64,000 bases of DNA. Origin: Bacteroidales bacterium (GTDB taxonomy: Bacteria > Bacteroidota > Bacteroidia > Bacteroidales > UBA3824). The stretch spans positions 68,644 to 132,643 of the forward strand of contig JAFPYR010000021.1 of the NCBI GenBank assembly GCA_017412115.1, given 5' to 3'. The position numbers and the translations under genes are program-made. The number at the start of each line of letters is the position of its first letter. Positions within the stretch are counted from its first letter, which is position 1. The notes under the pieces are model-generated. The model had not been told where the DNA came from and did no database searches. It saw only the letters and a program-made list of their open reading frames with translations. This document shows positions 13,842-23,722 of this stretch, piece by piece.

Positions 13842-16070
13842 TTAAAATCTGTCAAATTCTTGGTCTCTTTTATCATTGGCATCTTTCATCTGAATTATTG
13901 CGCCTTGTTTCTGACCGTATTTTTTACTCTTGAACTGTTCCAAAGAATTCGGCGAGGCAGAATTAAGACTTGGAATCGTTTTCCCTTGATTAAGGGACTT
14001 TGTTATCTCTGCTCTTGACAAAGATGCTGCGGTGTTAGACTGCGAGGGAAGCGTTGATGGTTTTGTTTGCTTTGAGGCTTGTGAAGTAGCTGTCGTATTA
14101 GTCTTTTTATTGGAACGTTCACTGCTGAAATCAGTATTTTTGAAATGACTCGTGGTCTTCTCTTTTGATATTCCCGGTTTTGATTTCTCTTTTTCGCCTG
14201 TTTTGAATGCTTTAACGGATTGTTTGAGCTCTTCGCTCTTTTCTGCAAGTTGCTGACTTGTTGCCGCAAGCTCCTCTGCTGAGGCAGCATAACGCTGCGT
14301 AATCTCGTTAAACTGCTGAACGGCTCCGTTTATCTGATTGATACCGCTGCTTTGTTCAGTACTTGCTGCGGCTATCTCTCTTACGAGGTCTGCTGTTTTC
14401 TCTATTTCGGGAATAATATTCTTTAACAAAGAGTCTGCGTTTTCGCTTATTGTAACACCTTCTTTTGAAACTTTGTCAATTTCAGAGGCTGCAACGGCAC
14501 TTCTTTCGGCAAGTTTTCTGACCTCGGCTGCTACAACGGCAAAACCTTTTCCTTGTTCGCCCGCTCTCGCGGCTTCAACGGCTGCATTAAGAGCAAGTAT
14601 ATTGGTCTGAAAGGCTATTTCGTCAATAATAGAAATTTTGTTTGCGATTTCTTTCATTGCCGCCATACTCAACTGACTCGCCTCACTACTTTGTTTGATG
14701 TTCAAAAGTGCTTTTTGCGCAATGTGTTCTGTTTGACGGGCATTGTCGGAGTTTTGACTGATTCCCGCGCTCATTTGCTCTACCGATGAGGAAACCTCTT
14801 CTGCCGAGGAGGCTTGATGTCCGGCTCCGTCGCTCATTTGTTGAGATGTTTTGGCAATCTCAAGCGAAGTCTGATTGATGTCCTCCGCATTAACGGTAAT
14901 ACTGTTGATGGATTTTCTCATCATTGATGCCATTTGATTTACGCTCTGAGCCATCTCGCCGAATTCGTCTTTGCTATCTACCTCGATAACGGCTGTCAAA
15001 TCTCCTGAGGCTATTGTATTAATACCATCAAGCGTTTTCTTGGCTTTACCGCCTAATCTCTTGGAAATTAGTATTGTATAGAAAATGCAGAAAATAAATA
15101 TCAATGCGGATACACAGATAAATATTTTTGCAATATTTACCAATTCTTCGTCAATTTTTACAAAAGCATCGTTGGTTTCATTATCGTTTTTCTGAGTTAT
15201 TTGTCTTGAAAGGTTGAGTATTATGTATCCTTTCTCTCCGTTGCCTTTAGCTAATCTTTCGTTTTCGTCTGCCATTTGATGGTAAGTCTTGCTACCCTCG
15301 GCATATCCTTGAATATTATTAATCGCATCATCTACTTTTCTTGATTTTCCGAGCTCTGAGGCAAAACCTCTTATTGAATTTACTTTGGAAGTTAAATTCA
15401 TGAAAACATCTTGAAGCTTTGATTTGTCGCTGATTTTACCTTTTGCTCTCTCTACCATACGGATAATCTCCGATACGATTTTTACTCGCTCTGCTATTTG
15501 TTTAGTATTTTTGCCGTTTTTGTTGTTAGAATTGATTACCGCCTCTCGTATTTCCTCCAAATCTGCATAAAAACTTTCTTTGTACTGCTCCAAATCTTGA
15601 TAAAGTTGAGCCATCTTTTTTTTGTTATCTACCATTTTTGCGGCAGCTTGTTTGTATGTCGATAGCGCTGAGGTGATACTGTCAAGTTTTCGTTGGTCTG
15701 AGGAAGAGAGTTTTTGCTTTTTCAGACCCGTTATGGCATTTTCAAGTTCTCCTAAATATTTATCTGCGTTGATTTGCTCTAAAGCGTCCTCCGGATTGAG
15801 CCTCATACCTCTTGCATGATACATTGCCATAAGTGCATAATAATTAATATCACCGCTGTATCGGTTTTGAGGCAATATGTCGTTAGACATGTGATCTAAA
15901 TGTTCGCCTGTCTTATTGAATGAAGTAATCATTATAACGGCGGCGGTTGTTATAGTAATACAAATAACCGTAAATATCCACGCTATTTTGCCGGCTATCT
16001 TCATGTCGTTGAAATTGAATATATTCATAACGTTTGCTTTTTTGGTATTAATATTATTTGTACTAATCAA
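13842..16070 (-). CDS. methyl-accepting chemotaxis protein (TM sensor, HAMP, MCP signalling domain, low-complexity tail)
   Basis: HAMP region ([27 protein letters not shown]) and the invariant hairpin tip [40 protein letters not shown]. Confidence 0.85.
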
Positions 16071-16098
16071 AATTTGTGCAAGATATGTATTTTTTTAT

Positions 16099-16106
16099 TA
16101 ATTTTG
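16099..16106 (+). promoter_or_regulatory. -7 box TAATTTTG
   Basis: Lies inside the 5' extension of track ORF 16074, which argues for the ATG at 16137 as the true start. Confidence 0.45.
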
Positions 16107-16136
16107 CACAAAAAAATATTAAAAATTTTAATAAAC

Positions 16137-16748
16137 ATGAAAATTTTTTGTATAGCAGCCAATTATCCTAAACACAATCAGGAAATAAAGATGAAAGCTG
16201 AGGCTGAGCCCGTTATGTTTATAAAACCTGAAACGGCATATCTTAAAAATTTCAGTGATTTTTATATACCCGAGTTTTCCTCACAGGTTGAATACGAAAC
16301 CGAAATAGTCTTGAAAATCAATAAGATGTGCAAATGTGTTGATAAGAAGTTTGCTTCACGTTATTATTCGGAATTAACATTAGGTCTTGATATTACAGCC
16401 AGAGATATTCAGAACTTAGCGAGGGAAAAAGGTTTGCCGTGGTTTTTGAGCAAAGGATTTGATTTTTCAGCTCCCGTTGGGGATTTCTTGCCTAAAACGG
16501 ATTTTGATACGGTTCACGACATAGATTTTTCTTTGAATATTAACGGTAAGGAAGTTCAAAGAGGAAATTCAAAGGATATGATATTTTCTTTTGACGAAAT
16601 CGTGTCATATATTTCGCAGTATGTAACCCTTAAAACGGGAGATTTAATCTTTACGGGTACTCCACAAGGGGTTGGAAAACTTAATATCGGTGATAAACTC
16701 GAAGGCTTTTTGTCTGGAAAAAAGGTTTTGGAGATTAATGTAAAATAA
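16137..16748 (+). CDS. fumarylacetoacetate hydrolase (FAH) family protein
   Basis: MKIFCIAANYPKH...EYETEIVL...GDLIFTGTPQGVG, typical of the FAH/2-keto-4-pentenoate hydratase family. Start moved from 16074 on promoter evidence. Confidence 0.8.
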   Translation: MKIFCIAANYPKHNQEIKMKAEAEPVMFIKPETAYLKNFSDFYIPEFSSQVEYETEIVLKINKMCKCVDKKFASRYYSELTLGLDITARDIQNLAREKGLPWFLSKGFDFSAPVGDFLPKTDFDTVHDIDFSLNINGKEVQRGNSKDMIFSFDEIVSYISQYVTLKTGDLIFTGTPQGVGKLNIGDKLEGFLSGKKVLEINVK

Positions 16749-17045
16749 TCATATAACCCTAAATGATAACTTTGTTCAAAGGACAAAATAATCATTTAAC
16801 CCTAAATGATAACTTTGTTCAAAGGACAAAATAATCATTTAACCCTAAATGATAACTTTGTTCAAAGGACAAAATGATCATTTAACCCTAAATGATGACT
16901 TTGTCCAAAGGACAAAATGATCATTTAACCCTAAATGATGACTTTGTCCAAAAGGCAAAATAATCATTTAACCCTAAATGATAACTTTGTCCAAAAGGCA
17001 AAATAATCATTTAACCCTAAATGATGACTTTGTCCAAAAGTGGAA
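16745..17045. repeat. tandem array, 7 x 43 bp, each unit with two dyad symmetries
   Basis: AACCCT recurs at 16755, 16798, 16841, 16884, 16927, 16970 and 17013, an exact 43-nt period. Each unit contains ATCATTTA-ACCC-TAAATGAT and TTTGT(T/C)C-AAA-GGACAAA. Confidence 0.9.
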
Positions 17046-17159
17046 AAAATATAATCAGAGGGCGTTATAATAAACTATTTTGGTTTTTATTATTAAACGT
17101 TATAATAAAATAAACGTCAAATAACAGAGTTTTTTAAATCATACAATCAAATTATTATA

Positions 17160-19625
17160 ATGAAAAAGATACTTTCTTTATTGACACTATTATTAATATG
17201 TCTTAATTCTTTTGCGGATAATTCACCGAATGATAAGGCCGCAATTTTAGGAAAAATTTTAGACGGCAAGACGGGACAACCCGTTGAATATGCAACAGTT
17301 GCCGTTTATGATCAACAGACAAGCGGATTGATTTCCGGAACTATTACCTCTAATGACGGAAGTTTCAAAATCGATGGACTCAAAAGCGGAACTTATTATA
17401 TTAAAGCGAGTTTTATCGGTTATGACGAAAAAATTGTCCGTGATATTGTATTGGAAGGCAAAAACAAAGATTTAGGTGTTATAAAACTTTCAACCTCTGA
17501 CGCCGAAATCGAAGAAGTTGAAATTGTTGCTCAAAAAAAGGACATCAGTTATCAGATTGACAAAAAAGTCATTAATCTTTCCACCGATATTAATGCCGAC
17601 AACGGAAGTGCCGCCGATGCTTTGGAAGGTGTTCCGAGTGTAGATGTGGATATTGACGGAAATGTTTCACTTCGTGGTAGCAGTAATTTTACTGTTTTGA
17701 TTGACGGCAAACCTACCGCTTTGGACGCAGCCGAGGTCTTAAAACAAACTCCTGCCGCTATGATTGATAATATCGAAATTATTACTAACCCTTCAGCAAA
17801 ATATGACCCCGAAGGTACTACGGGTATTATTAATCTTGTCACCAAAAAAAATATGATTCAAGGTATTAATGGTGTTGTTAATGCTAATGTAGGAAGTCAG
17901 GGACGTTACGGCGGAGATTTTCTTTTTAACCGTAGAAGAGATAAGATTAATTATTTTGTCGGAGGACATTATAATCAAAGAGGTTTTGATTTTAATTCTA
18001 TTTCAGACCGTATCACACATGAAACGGATTATGATAAATATGTTTATCAGAAGGCCAATCACGAGCGCAGATTCGGCGGTGGCGGTCTTAAAACGGGTTT
18101 GGATTATTACCTTAACGATAATAATCTTTTTAACTTTTCTATCGAAGGCGGACTTTTTTCAAGCAGTGTTGATGGTAATAACACTTATAAAAATTATGTT
18201 AAGACCCAAGATGTTGAGTCAGATCATGAAGATGTGAAATCTACGACTACTGAAGACGAAAATTCATATTATTATAACACGAGTTTGTCGTATACGCATA
18301 ATTTTGCGGGCAAAGGTCATAAATTGAATTTCAACGGTTTTTATTCTTATAACGACCGTGATGCGGATAATCTTTTTGTTCAAAAGTCTGAATTAGAAAA
18401 CGATATATTTAAAAAATCAGGTCATCAAATCGGTAATCAGAAAACAACCAACAGGGGACGTATTAATCTTGATTATACTAAACCTTTTGCTAACGGTAAT
18501 AAATTTGAGGCAGGTTTTCAGGAGGATTTGAACCATGCCGTAACCGATTATGACTTTGACGATTATGTGTCATCTTCCGATAGTTATGTTTATAATCCTG
18601 AGTTTACGAATGATGTAGTTTTTAAGCGTTATATTTCATCTGTGTATTCAACTTTTTCGGCAACTTTCGGAAATTTTGGTATGCAACTCGGATTAAGGGG
18701 TGAGTATACTTACAGGGAGATGAATACCAAAAACGGATTAATTGATACAACGTTTTTAATCGACCGTTTTGATTGGTTTCCTTCGATTCATCTTTCTCAA
18801 AACATAGGACAAAATTCTCTTCAAGCGGGTTATTCAAGACGTATACGCCGTCCTTGGGAGCAGGCGTTGAATCCTTTTCCCGCATATTCTGACGAATATT
18901 CAAGAAGAATAGGTAATCCCGATTTGAAACCTCAATACACTGATGTTTTTGAACTTAATTATCAGATGAATTTTGATAAGTTTTTTGTTGCCTTGGAGAC
19001 TTTTTACCGTCATACGGACGGAGCAACGGAAAATGTCAGCACTTTGGCTACCGACGGTTCAGGTATTTTGATTTCAAGATTTGAGAATCTTTCTACCAAT
19101 AATAATTTCGGGCTTGAACTCTCAGGTGATTATGAGATTAATAAATGGATTAAATTCAGTGCGAATTTTGAAGTCAGACAATATTATATAAGAGGTAATT
19201 ATAACGGTCAGATGCGTTATCAGGACGGAAAATCATGGCGCACGAAAGAAACATTATCTCTTTCACCGGGCAAGACTACAAAGATTCAGATTAATATGCG
19301 TTACCGTGGTAGCGACAAAACGCTTGTATCTTCCAATCAAGGCAATCTTGATTTAGGACTTGCAATCAGACAGAGTTTCTTTAAGAAAAGACTTTCTATG
19401 TCATTCAGTATGAGGGATATGCTTAATACGGGAACAAGTAAACAAACGACCGACACGCCGGAATATTGGCTTTATACTGAAAGACACCGTGCTGCTCCGA
19501 TGTGGAATTTAGGTATTTCCTTTAAGATTAATAGTTATAAGGAGAAACGTCCGAACGGTTATGAAGGCGGTGAAGGCGGCGAAGAAGGCGATATGGAAGG
19601 CGGCTTTGACGGCGGTGATTATTAA
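17160..19625 (+). CDS. TonB-dependent-receptor-like outer-membrane beta-barrel protein with N-terminal carboxypeptidase-regulatory-like domain
   Basis: Signal peptide; CarbopepD_reg-like GKILDGKTGQPVEYATVAVYD; plug-like region (LEGVPSVDVDIDGNVSLRGSSNFTVLIDGKP); long beta-barrel; Gly/Glu-rich tail. Confidence 0.8.
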   Translation: MKKILSLLTLLLICLNSFADNSPNDKAAILGKILDGKTGQPVEYATVAVYDQQTSGLISGTITSNDGSFKIDGLKSGTYYIKASFIGYDEKIVRDIVLEGKNKDLGVIKLSTSDAEIEEVEIVAQKKDISYQIDKKVINLSTDINADNGSAADALEGVPSVDVDIDGNVSLRGSSNFTVLIDGKPTALDAAEVLKQTPAAMIDNIEIITNPSAKYDPEGTTGIINLVTKKNMIQGINGVVNANVGSQGRYGGDFLFNRRRDKINYFVGGHYNQRGFDFNSISDRITHETDYDKYVYQKANHERRFGGGGLKTGLDYYLNDNNLFNFSIEGGLFSSSVDGNNTYKNYVKTQDVESDHEDVKSTTTEDENSYYYNTSLSYTHNFAGKGHKLNFNGFYSYNDRDADNLFVQKSELENDIFKKSGHQIGNQKTTNRGRINLDYTKPFANGNKFEAGFQEDLNHAVTDYDFDDYVSSSDSYVYNPEFTNDVVFKRYISSVYSTFSATFGNFGMQLGLRGEYTYREMNTKNGLIDTTFLIDRFDWFPSIHLSQNIGQNSLQAGYSRRIRRPWEQALNPFPAYSDEYSRRIGNPDLKPQYTDVFELNYQMNFDKFFVALETFYRHTDGATENVSTLATDGSGILISRFENLSTNNNFGLELSGDYEINKWIKFSANFEVRQYYIRGNYNGQMRYQDGKSWRTKETLSLSPGKTTKIQINMRYRGSDKTLVSSNQGNLDLGLAIRQSFFKKRLSMSFSMRDMLNTGTSKQTTDTPEYWLYTERHRAAPMWNLGISFKINSYKEKRPNGYEGGEGGEEGDMEGGFDGGDY

Positions 19626-20271: not shown

Positions 20272-21361
20272 ATGTACAATAAAGACGAATATAAGGCTCT
20301 AATAAAACGAGTAGCGGAGCTGAGGAGGCATCTTTGACATTGATGTTAAAAGAGCTTTAGTAGCAAAAAAACAGTTAAAAACGGAGGAAGACGGTTTTTG
20401 GGACGATGCCAAAGAGGCGGAAAAGTATCTGAAATCAATATCCGACGAGAAAAAATGGATTACGGATTTTGACGAAGTAGAAGCCTCAGCAAAGGATTTG
20501 CAAGTTTTGGCGGAGTTTTCAGAGTTAGGGGAGGAGGTAGGTCAGGATTATGACCAGCAGTATTCTTTGACCCTGTCTTTGGTAGAAAATCTTGAGTTTA
20601 AGAATATGCTCCGTAACGAGGAGGATGCTTTTGACGCTATTTTGAAAATTAACGCCGGAGCCGGCGGCACGGAGTCAAACGATTGGGCGTCAATGCTTAT
20701 GCGTATGTATATGCGTTGGGCAGAGGACAACGGGTATAAAGTTTCGGTTACAAACCTTTTGGAGGGCGAGGATGCCGGAATCAAAACCGTTTCGTTGCAG
20801 ATTTCGGGCGAATATGCTTTCGGCTGGTTGAAAGGCGAAAATGGAGTTCACCGTTTGGTTAGAATTTCACCTTTTAATGCTCAGGGCAAACGTCAGACTA
20901 CATTTGCGTCTGTTTTTGTTGTGCCGCTTATCAACGACGATATTGAAATTACGATAAATCCATCCGAACTTGAGTGGGATACATTCCGCTCCTCGGGTGC
21001 CGGCGGACAAAATGTTAATAAGGTGGAAACCGGAGTCAGGGTAAAACACATTCCCTCTGGAATCGTAGTTGAAAACACCGAGAGCCGCACTCAAGGTCAG
21101 AACCGTGAAAATGCGTTGAGGATATTAAAATCGCATCTTTACGAAATCGAATTGAATAAAAAACGTGAAAAGCAAGCTGAAATCGAAGGTAAAAAGAAGA
21201 AAATAGAGTGGGGAAGTCAGATTCGCAGTTATGTGATGCACCCTTACAAAATGGTTAAGGATCTTAGAACTAATATTGAAACTTCTGATGTTCAGGCTGT
21301 TATGGACGGTGCACTAAATCCTTTCCTAAAAGGATATTTGATGCAGTTCGGTTCTGAGTAA
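20272..21361 (+). CDS. prfB: peptide chain release factor 2, requires programmed +1 frameshift at 20332-20338
   Basis: Frame 0 encodes MYNKDEYKALIKRVAELRRHL then TGA. Slipping +1 on CTT TGA C joins the 20336 frame, which carries SPF (ISPFNA) and GGQ (SSGAGGQNVNKVETGV). Confidence 0.9.
20323..20338 (+). promoter_or_regulatory. RF2 autoregulatory +1 frameshift site (SD-like AGGAGG + CTT TGA C)
   Basis: AGGAGGCATCTTTGAC read directly from the sequence. The reading frames were verified by codon counting. Confidence 0.9.
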
Positions 21362-23236: not shown

Positions 23237-23722
23237 ATGAAAAAGTTGAACAAAAAAATGGTTGTAGTTGCAATGGCTTTTGCAGCAACATTGTTGAATC
23301 CGGCAAACAGTTTTTCTAATGTTAGAATCGACACTCTTAAAACTGCTGATTCTGAAGAAACTGCAATCAGCCCCGATTTTGAAGAAGAATTGGAAGAAGA
23401 GGCTTTAGCTGTTGAAAAATGGATGTTTGAGCCCGTTTATGTAAACGCTGAAGAAAATCTTGAGGTTGAGGCTTGGATGAGCGAGAATTTATTTGAAAAT
23501 GCTGAAGAAAAGCTCGAAGTTGAGGCTTGGATGAGTGAAAACGCATTTGAGGATGCTGAAGAAAAACTCGAAGTTGAGGCTTGGATGAGCGAAAACGCAT
23601 TTGAAGATGCTGAAGAAAAACTCGTAGTAGAGGATTGGATGAGCGAAAAAATCTTCGAAGATGCTGAAGAAACGCTTGAAATCGAATCTTGGATGAGCGA
23701 TCCCGATTATTTCAAAAAATAA
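23237..23722 (+). CDS. secreted acidic protein with six (E/D/S)WM motifs (18-aa tandem repeats)
   Basis: Signal peptide, then AEEKLEVEAWMSENAFED-type units. Confidence 0.6.
   Translation: MKKLNKKMVVVAMAFAATLLNPANSFSNVRIDTLKTADSEETAISPDFEEELEEEALAVEKWMFEPVYVNAEENLEVEAWMSENLFENAEEKLEVEAWMSENAFEDAEEKLEVEAWMSENAFEDAEEKLVVEDWMSEKIFEDAEETLEIESWMSDPDYFKK
23447..23716 (+). repeat. in-frame 54-bp tandem repeat x5 inside the CDS
   Basis: aa 71-160 split into five 18-aa units: AEENLEVEAWMSENLFEN, AEEKLEVEAWMSENAFED (x2), AEEKLVVEDWMSEKIFED, AEETLEIESWMSDPDYFK. Confidence 0.9.

Follow-up and report, generated by a model that had tools for sequence, protein, structure and literature searches.

Variable-number tandem repeats (VNTRs) occur inside bacterial operons, as in the mycobacterial interspersed repetitive units (MIRUs) of Mycobacterium, which are non-palindromic and have no tie to one gene family. 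Multi-site arrays also serve as centromeres: in sopC of plasmid F, a direct repeat of 43 bp stands 12 times, and SopB binds the 16-bp inverted repeat that each copy contains (PMC3177203). In the order Bacteroidales, the closest published elements are MITEPgRS (MITE464) of Porphyromonas gingivalis, with its 41-nt tandem 'Repeat C', and the 23-nt minisatellite BrickBuilt. These arrays lie inside transposable elements of the miniature inverted-repeat kind (MITEs) with IS5-type terminal inverted repeats (TIRs), leader and tail or Repeat A and B sequences, and many copies of the same sequence (PMC2575886, PMC4596501). Here we analyse a tandem array of seven 43-bp units (positions 16742-17042) that lies between a fumarylacetoacetate hydrolase (FAH)-family gene and a receptor-like gene of an uncultured ruminant-gut Bacteroidales bacterium, represented by a metagenome-assembled genome (MAG). 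The window, by which we mean the whole stretch of DNA analysed, comprises 64,000 nucleotides (contig JAFPYR010000021.1 of assembly GCA_017412115.1, positions 68,644 to 132,643 of the forward strand), and positions without a contig label refer to it.

Our results show that the array is an orphan of a class of repeats linked to genes of the DUF6261 family (PF19775), since it has the features of that class and no DUF6261 gene adjoins it. It is most likely a variable minisatellite of a phased-palindrome type, and the overall explanation, which we hold with good though not full confidence, is that it is an orphan member of a Bacteroidales-wide class of phased palindrome minisatellites. Arrays of this class would consist of units of 41-43 bp placed head to tail (in this clade, of exactly 43), with one or two dyads each and a sequence private to each locus, and would normally stand just 5′ of the promoter of a stand-alone DUF6261 gene.

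Structure of the array

An earlier note on this DNA, made from the window alone, had reported a 43-bp tandem array with the hexamer AACCCT at seven positions. Both Tandem Repeats Finder (TRF) and direct reading of the sequence bear this out. TRF calls a single array at 16742-17038 (period 43, 6.9 copies, 96% matches, 0 indels, score 503), which we cut every 43 bp from 16742 to obtain seven units ending at 17042 (consensus AAAATAATCATTTAACCCTAAATGATAACTTTGTCCAAAGGAC; the array, its dyads and the tail described below carry no strand assignment). AACCCT stands at 16755, 16798, 16841, 16884, 16927, 16970 and 17013. The note had also called the array exact, with four polymorphic positions and with units 1 and 2 identical. 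Instead, 7-8 positions vary within the array (6, 12, 27, 35 and 40-43) and 11 do so across all four alleles, while the identical pair is formed by units 2 and 3, unit 1 having ATATA.

Each unit holds both of the dyads that had been described. Dyad 1, ATCATTTA-ACCC-TAAATGAT, is an 8-4-8 palindrome (16791-16810 in unit 2) with starts at 16748, 16791, 16834, 16877, 16920, 16963 and 17006, that is, in steps of 43 bp. This 20-mer is matched seven times (6 exactly and 1 with one mismatch), against 0.01 matches expected from shuffled sequences, and its core is constant in all alleles but for position 12. Dyad 2, TTTGT(T/C)C-AAA-GGACAAA, is a 7-3-7 palindrome (16814-16830 in unit 2) that crosses the unit junction and recurs every 43 bp; its right arm is the most variable portion of the unit. 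Dyad 1 and dyad 2 are centred 21.5 bp from each other, at exactly half the period, so the array is an alternating row of two kinds of dyad, one every 21.5 bp. Furthermore, the unit as a whole is self-complementary at 32/43 positions, which makes the array a long quasi-palindrome as well.

As previously stated, the array begins on the stop codon of the FAH-family gene (TAA, 16746-16748, inside unit 1). Its end had been placed about 115 bp before the ATG at 17160; this was near the mark, the last unit ending 117 bp 5′ of that codon. The array is non-coding, as the note held, and its units abut without the spacers of a CRISPR. No promoter or terminator consensus was found within it, and a search of the array against Rfam 15 gave sub-threshold chance matches only, none reaching the gathering score.

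A class of 43-bp arrays in the genome and across the order

The existence of a genome-wide and order-wide class tied to DUF6261 goes beyond what a single window shows. In the genome to which the window belongs (4.09 Mb; hereafter G000, other G numbers being relatives), whole-genome TRF yielded eight or more arrays in which a unit of exactly 43 bp is present at least three times, against at most one array for any other period between 35 and 50 bp. These eight arrays form four sequence families (A-D), of which family A is the orphan array at 16742-17042. Family D, the DUF6261-linked array on contig C101, is 35/43 (81%) identical to A on the opposite strand, and a family of the relative G010, with a DUF6261-linked copy at G010:C115, is 33/43 identical to A. 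For families B and C, similarity to A does not exceed that of shuffled sequences (best shuffled score 26/43).

Homologous genes of about 229 codons, which Pfam assigns to DUF6261, follow the arrays of family B on C14, of family C on C94 (outside the window) and of family D on C101, each at a distance of about 245 bp. Between array and gene, these paralogues share a conserved stretch that holds a Bacteroidetes-type promoter, TTGCATAATTAAAA...TTTTATCTTTGCAG (TTG...TAnnTTTG), so that linked arrays sit upstream of the promoter of their gene. A fourth paralogue in G000 is preceded by a 43-bp periodicity that is only degenerate; a link between these repeats (G000:C43) and family A, at 27/43 against a shuffle maximum of 26, was too weak to be kept. 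Other orphan arrays of the class adjoin unrelated genes (an EamA transporter, GreA/atpB, a TPP enzyme and uxaC), so that nearness to a receptor gene is incidental. Moreover, the units of the linked array C101 and of the orphan array C111 are identical at 42/43 positions within one genome, and array DNA has thus moved between loci recently without the gene.

Several loci of the class show features of their own. The DUF6261 paralogue at G000:C14:61070-61747 carries two in-frame stops (TAG and TAA), and the array upstream of it is intact (6.1 units, 93% match; 7.5 units in the orthologous array of G018). The first unit of the orphan array at G000:C111:41985-42020, between a small secreted-protein gene and uxaC, is inverted, and the resulting head-to-head junction forms a larger palindrome at the left edge. 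At G000:C43:48558-49324, a family-C array is followed by about 180 bp of the conserved array-to-DUF6261 module, no DUF6261 gene, and then rpsL; with its partial module, it looks intermediate between linked and orphan arrays.

We searched PF19775 over 201 genomes of the order and found it in 21 of them, often in multiple copies. TRF detects an array of period 41-42 at 19 of the 30 DUF6261 loci fetched, ending 67-492 bp before the first ATG (within 200 bp in all but two), and 7 of the 11 loci without a TRF array peak in autocorrelation at a lag of 41-43. Within the clade of G000, an upstream array is present at 15 of 20 DUF6261 loci, with a period of 43 in all 15 and at least eight unrelated unit sequences; the loci lacking one are contig-edge genes or have degenerate arrays. 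Congeners possess additional 43-bp arrays of yet other sequences, and in the clade the exact 43-bp period recurs in more than 20 arrays whose sequences are unrelated. No unit of the class lacks a strong dyad (arms of 5-10 bp), and the loop of many dyads is of 0-2 nt. Within the lineage, then, the period is constant and the sequence is free, a combination that argues for a physical or protein-imposed constraint and not for simple descent.

At the congener loci L094, L095, L096, L100, L103, L109 and L111 the DUF6261 gene lies within 100-700 bp of a contig end on the side where the array would be expected. Arrays evidently break short-read assemblies, and counts of them in MAGs are too low. An Rfam search of 13 related arrays returned nothing on the arrays themselves. 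In G020, matches to the Acido-Lenti-1 RNA (45.5 and 37.4 bits) adjoin the 43-bp array, and a DUF805b RNA motif stands just 3′ of the DUF6261 gene in G020 and G007 (positions for the two motifs together: L012:1287-1430 and L012:2810-2844; L017:338-372). Our literature search found no published account of DUF6261-linked 41-43-bp arrays, and no paper on 43-bp tandem repeats in Bacteroides.

The array is an insertion at an ancestral FAH-receptor junction

The FAH and receptor genes are adjacent without an array in five congeners (G013, G020, G007, G010 and G003), in all of which the 3′ end of the FAH gene is the same. The gap between both genes measures 56 bp in G013, G020 and G007 and 411 bp here. 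Alignment with these three genomes delimits extra DNA at about 16749-17092 (~344 bp), made up of the array and a 50-bp tail (17043-17092) that contains no recognisable unit; the tail was considered as a degenerate eighth unit, but its similarity to the unit is not above that of shuffles. Beyond it, the segment TTAAAC...ACGTCAAA... (17093-17159, + strand) is common to the congeners without the array and is the ancestral intergenic sequence. These empty sites show that about 344 bp was recently inserted between the FAH stop codon and the receptor gene, in the ancestor shared by this species and its nearest relative. Nor, given these sites, is there a conserved link to the outer-membrane barrel gene, whose expression the array might alter according to the earlier note.

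The last codons and stop of the FAH gene, GTAAAATAA, are likewise ancestral. They overlap the first 7 bases of unit 1, AAAATAA, with which each unit starts. We infer that this heptamer, common to the unit and to the FAH end, is a possible microhomology for joining, and insertion or trimming of the array may have made use of it. In comparison with family D (35 matches in one orientation, 26 in the other) and with G010:C115, the side of the array that would face DUF6261 is, with moderate clarity, the left one, which abuts the FAH stop.

Neither a DUF6261 gene nor the promoter module was found with the inserted array. Pfam analysis of the neighbours and the genome search revealed no DUF6261 gene within several kb, the nearest match on the same 141-kb contig (C94:50327-51010) being about 34 kb distant and beyond the window. 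The 400-bp flanks of the array have no other match in G000. A genome-wide search for the 8-4-8 palindrome, as the earlier note had advised, located the exact motif at this locus only, related 43-bp arrays being present elsewhere; in viral contigs, the exact palindrome has two chance single matches, both within coding sequence.

Units are gained, lost and reshuffled

Turnover of units had been expected from the drift along the array, and the comparison of four assemblies agrees with it. The array counts 7 units in G000 and 6 both in G018 and in each of two Joint Genome Institute (JGI) metagenome contigs, in three different unit orders. Adjacent flanks are ~98-100% identical, falling to ~91% farther upstream in the JGI contigs. 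G018, the nearest relative (a sheep-rumen MAG), differs by 1 change in 120 bp of the upstream flank and by none in 160 bp of the downstream one, and the JGI contigs have the same junction as G000 together with six units in the third order. Across alleles the first unit is the most conserved and the last differs more, as expected if interior units turn over through unequal exchange or slippage. Other arrays behave similarly between G000 and G018: the second orphan array (G000:C111) has 7.1 and 8.4 copies, and two linked arrays have 6.1 and 7.5, and 6.0 and 5.0 copies, respectively. Copy number thus varies between conserved adjacent flanks, as in a VNTR or minisatellite, and these alignments show that, after its insertion, the array gained, lost and reshuffled whole units much faster than its flanks changed.

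The earlier note had named an invariant copy number, together with a motif unique to the locus, as signs of a neutral minisatellite. The motif is indeed unique to the locus. On the other hand, the copy number varies and other loci have related arrays, so a neutral one-off minisatellite is not the whole story. Taken alone, the array is a modest find, a variable minisatellite that would be of use as a strain marker for an uncultured rumen bacterium.

A probable row of protein-binding sites

Judging from its architecture, the array is probably a platform on which protein binds the DNA itself. With a dyad-symmetric site every 21.5 bp, it would suit cooperative binding by a dimeric or structure-specific DNA-binding protein, and the idea of a dimeric site with a four-helical-turn period, put forward for this array in the earlier note, fits the class to which it belongs. 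That the units form a row of protein-binding sites is probable on this architecture; the natural candidate for a reader is DUF6261. At the FAH-receptor locus the array is most probably dispensable, its main effect being a wider gap between both genes, and any role there is putative and probably minor.

The DUF6261 protein is modelled as an all-helical bundle (pLDDT 89.8). Its sequence has no match in the PDB, and hence no solved homologue, and it matches no NCBIfam or PHROG family; protein searches gave no named relatives, and text searches for HagB and HagC, guessed to be adhesins of the family, did not tie either to DUF6261. Downstream of DUF6261 genes the neighbours are heterogeneous, with no conserved gene partner. 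DUF6261 was therefore rejected as an obvious DNA binder, being a helical bundle with neither a fold match nor a PDB match and mostly acidic.

A number of points weigh against the reading of the array as an orphan row of binding sites. No array-binding protein is known, and DUF6261 lacks the features of a DNA binder: its model has no PDB fold match (best E 0.075) and its members are mostly acidic (median pI 5.9). At 10.5 bp per turn, a 43-bp period drifts off one helical face. The self-complementarity of the unit (32/43) leaves its orientation relative to linked arrays only moderately clear. The copy numbers derive from short-read assemblies of MAGs and metagenomes, which can mis-count repeats of 300 bp. 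Finally, a role as RNA in a read-through transcript from FAH to the receptor gene is possible.

A bolder proposal is that the arrays are landing pads for a reader, possibly DUF6261 as a new, sequence-adaptable DNA binder, and that orphans are live extra sites; we regard this as tentative and rather unlikely. If true, orphan arrays would be decoys, anchors or centromere-like pads tying unrelated genes, here a nutrient receptor, into the system, and the reader would set the period, 43 bp in this clade and 41-42 bp elsewhere.

Alternative explanations

Among the alternatives to an orphan minisatellite of the DUF6261-linked class, the one that survives best is an intercistronic RNA element. In this scenario FAH and the receptor gene form an operon, and some 14 transcribed hairpins lend stability to the upstream mRNA, attenuate read-through or fix the ratio of FAH to receptor, much as repetitive extragenic palindromic (REP) sequences, bacterial interspersed mosaic elements (BIMEs) or MIRUs act inside operons. 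Both genes are on the same strand, and the 56-bp gap of relatives suggests their co-transcription, which would make the array intercistronic here. Moreover, the only exact Bacteroidetes promoter consensus nearby precedes FAH, none being found between the array and the ATG at 17160. The array also folds as RNA far better than shuffled sequences on both strands (z-scores of -12.4 and -9.1), and units 1-3 retain dyad 2 through a T.G pair on the + strand. Nevertheless, good folding follows automatically from a palindromic repeat. In a crude count that ignores indels, arm mismatches in 24 gene-oriented arrays of the class comprise 33 G.T, 26 A.C and 49 other pairs, without strand bias, so that the two wobble-type mismatches are about equally common, the remainder commoner, and no sign of RNA selection on one strand is seen. 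Such wobble pairs lend no support to the string of RNA hairpins suggested in the earlier note. This absence of bias, the loops of 0-2 nt in many class dyads and the location of linked arrays upstream of the promoter of their gene together favour a dyad at the DNA level over a selected RNA hairpin. In addition, no terminator-like site was found at the array and congeners manage without it. We consider an RNA element unlikely, though deserving of mention before the others.

Somewhat less likely still is a dedicated operator, iteron or upstream activating sequence (UAS) array through which a dimeric regulator controls the receptor gene. The 117-bp distance to the ATG, the perfect dyad symmetry, a period near four helical turns and the retention of the array in four assemblies would all suit such a function. 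However, the orthologous gene has no array upstream in the five congeners, stray arrays of the same class adjoin unrelated genes, and the exact motif occurs nowhere else in the genome. Nor does a regulator gene stand next to it, and both its sequence and its copy number change rapidly. The array is not a conserved switch of the neighbouring receptor gene.

The third alternative, a MITE-type mobile element with an internal minisatellite that is moved in trans by an IS5-family transposase, as in MITEPgRS/MITE464 and BrickBuilt, we judge very unlikely. It would account for the same order, a similar unit length, an intergenic location, variable copy number and the polymorphism between insertion and empty site. 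Yet the insertion has no terminal inverted repeats, the only inverted repeats being internal to the array, and look-alikes of IS5-type TIRs near the nine arrays do not exceed the background rate of the genome. A conserved leader or tail is absent, as are Repeats A and B, the flanks are unmatched elsewhere in the genome, and the exact unit is present at one locus only.

It is even less probable that the array is a toxI-like repeat RNA of a type III toxin-antitoxin-like module whose protein partner was lost. A private partner gene that has tandem direct repeats of about 40 nt directly upstream does resemble toxIN, but no partner gene adjoins this array, the helical-bundle model of DUF6261 has no endoribonuclease fold match, a promoter separates array and gene in this clade, wobble pairs show no strand bias and Rfam finds nothing. 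CRISPR, iteron origin, type III toxin-antitoxin and Rfam families each fail a defining feature. Equally improbable is an assembly artefact or a purely neutral one-off minisatellite: every source is a short-read MAG or metagenome assembly and the exact motif is unique in the genome, but the same array occupies the same site in four independent assemblies and its exact 43-bp period is common to more than 20 clade arrays of unrelated sequence.

Neighbouring genes and other repeats

The FAH-family gene (16074-16748, + strand; Pfam PF01557, E 5e-49) is preceded by a match to the Bacteroidetes-type promoter consensus TTTG-N-TAnnTTTG (16073-16106, + strand; consensus match only). Downstream of the array, the gene at 17160-19625 (+ strand; Pfam CarboxypepD_reg and OMP_b-brl_3) encodes an outer-membrane beta-barrel protein resembling TonB-dependent receptors, every named relative of which is a 'Bacteroidales bacterium' MAG of sheep, goat, deer or horse gut. 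Pfam assigned the seven flanking open reading frames (ORFs) to a methyl-accepting chemotaxis protein (MCP), an amidotransferase, FAH, the receptor, Sua5, release factor 2 (RF2) and an extracytoplasmic function (ECF) sigma factor; none among these seven is an adjacent ParA/ParB, Rep-like or regulator gene.

The MCP is complete (13842-16070, - strand; 4HB_MCP, HAMP and MCPsignal, 742 aa), chemotaxis receptors being uncommon among Bacteroidales. In prfB (RF2; 20290-20340) we observed the classic programmed +1 frameshift site AGGAGG CAT CTT TGA C (20332-20338), which explains the missing N-terminus of the RF2 ORF listed from 20498. The window also contains a 54-bp tandem repeat at 23447-23700 (4.7 copies, 85% match). 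Elsewhere in the genome, contig ends carry real CRISPR arrays (G000:C65:1-2358 and C70:1-594), in which the repeats are of 47 nt (GTTGTGAATTGCTTTCAAATTTTTAACTTTGCAATGTCAAAAACAAC) and the spacers of about 30 nt. Heptamer-based arrays, (ACAATTG/AATTGAC)n, are abundant (41 of period 7, 16 of period 14 and 22 of period 21) and constitute a repeat class separate from the 43-bp arrays.

Comparison with known systems

What is new here is that arrays of the class can exist apart from DUF6261 genes, together with a clean empty-site comparison and a 43-bp period that is a strict constant of the lineage. Such arrays are able to exist, be copied and stay homogeneous without a DUF6261 gene. Orphans are hence a clean test bed for whatever reads the repeats, and a warning for annotation, in that these arrays should not be taken as regulators of whatever gene follows.

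As in MIRUs, the units fall within 40-100 bp, lie between two genes of the same strand, start on the upstream stop codon and vary in number among strains, whereas MIRUs are not palindromic dyad arrays and are not bound to one gene family. With MITEPgRS and BrickBuilt the array shares the host order, an intergenic position, spacerless tandem units of about 41 nt and a variable copy number; it differs from them in having no TIRs, no shared flanks and a sequence confined to a single locus. The resemblance to sopC extends to the 43-bp period, the spacerless tandem units, a dyad per unit and a multi-site platform for a dimeric binder. It differs from sopC as follows: no ParA/ParB (SopA/SopB) genes are nearby here, the contig looks chromosomal, each unit has two dyads, and there are many arrays per genome, each with its own sequence.

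The nearest counterparts are the DUF6261-linked arrays. Here no DUF6261 gene or promoter module is adjacent, and an unrelated gene has its stop codon at the end where DUF6261 would be expected. The two are alike in having a 43-bp period, spacerless head-to-tail units, one or two dyads per unit, a sequence private to the locus, fast turnover and a unit that is 81% identical to that of a linked array in the same genome.

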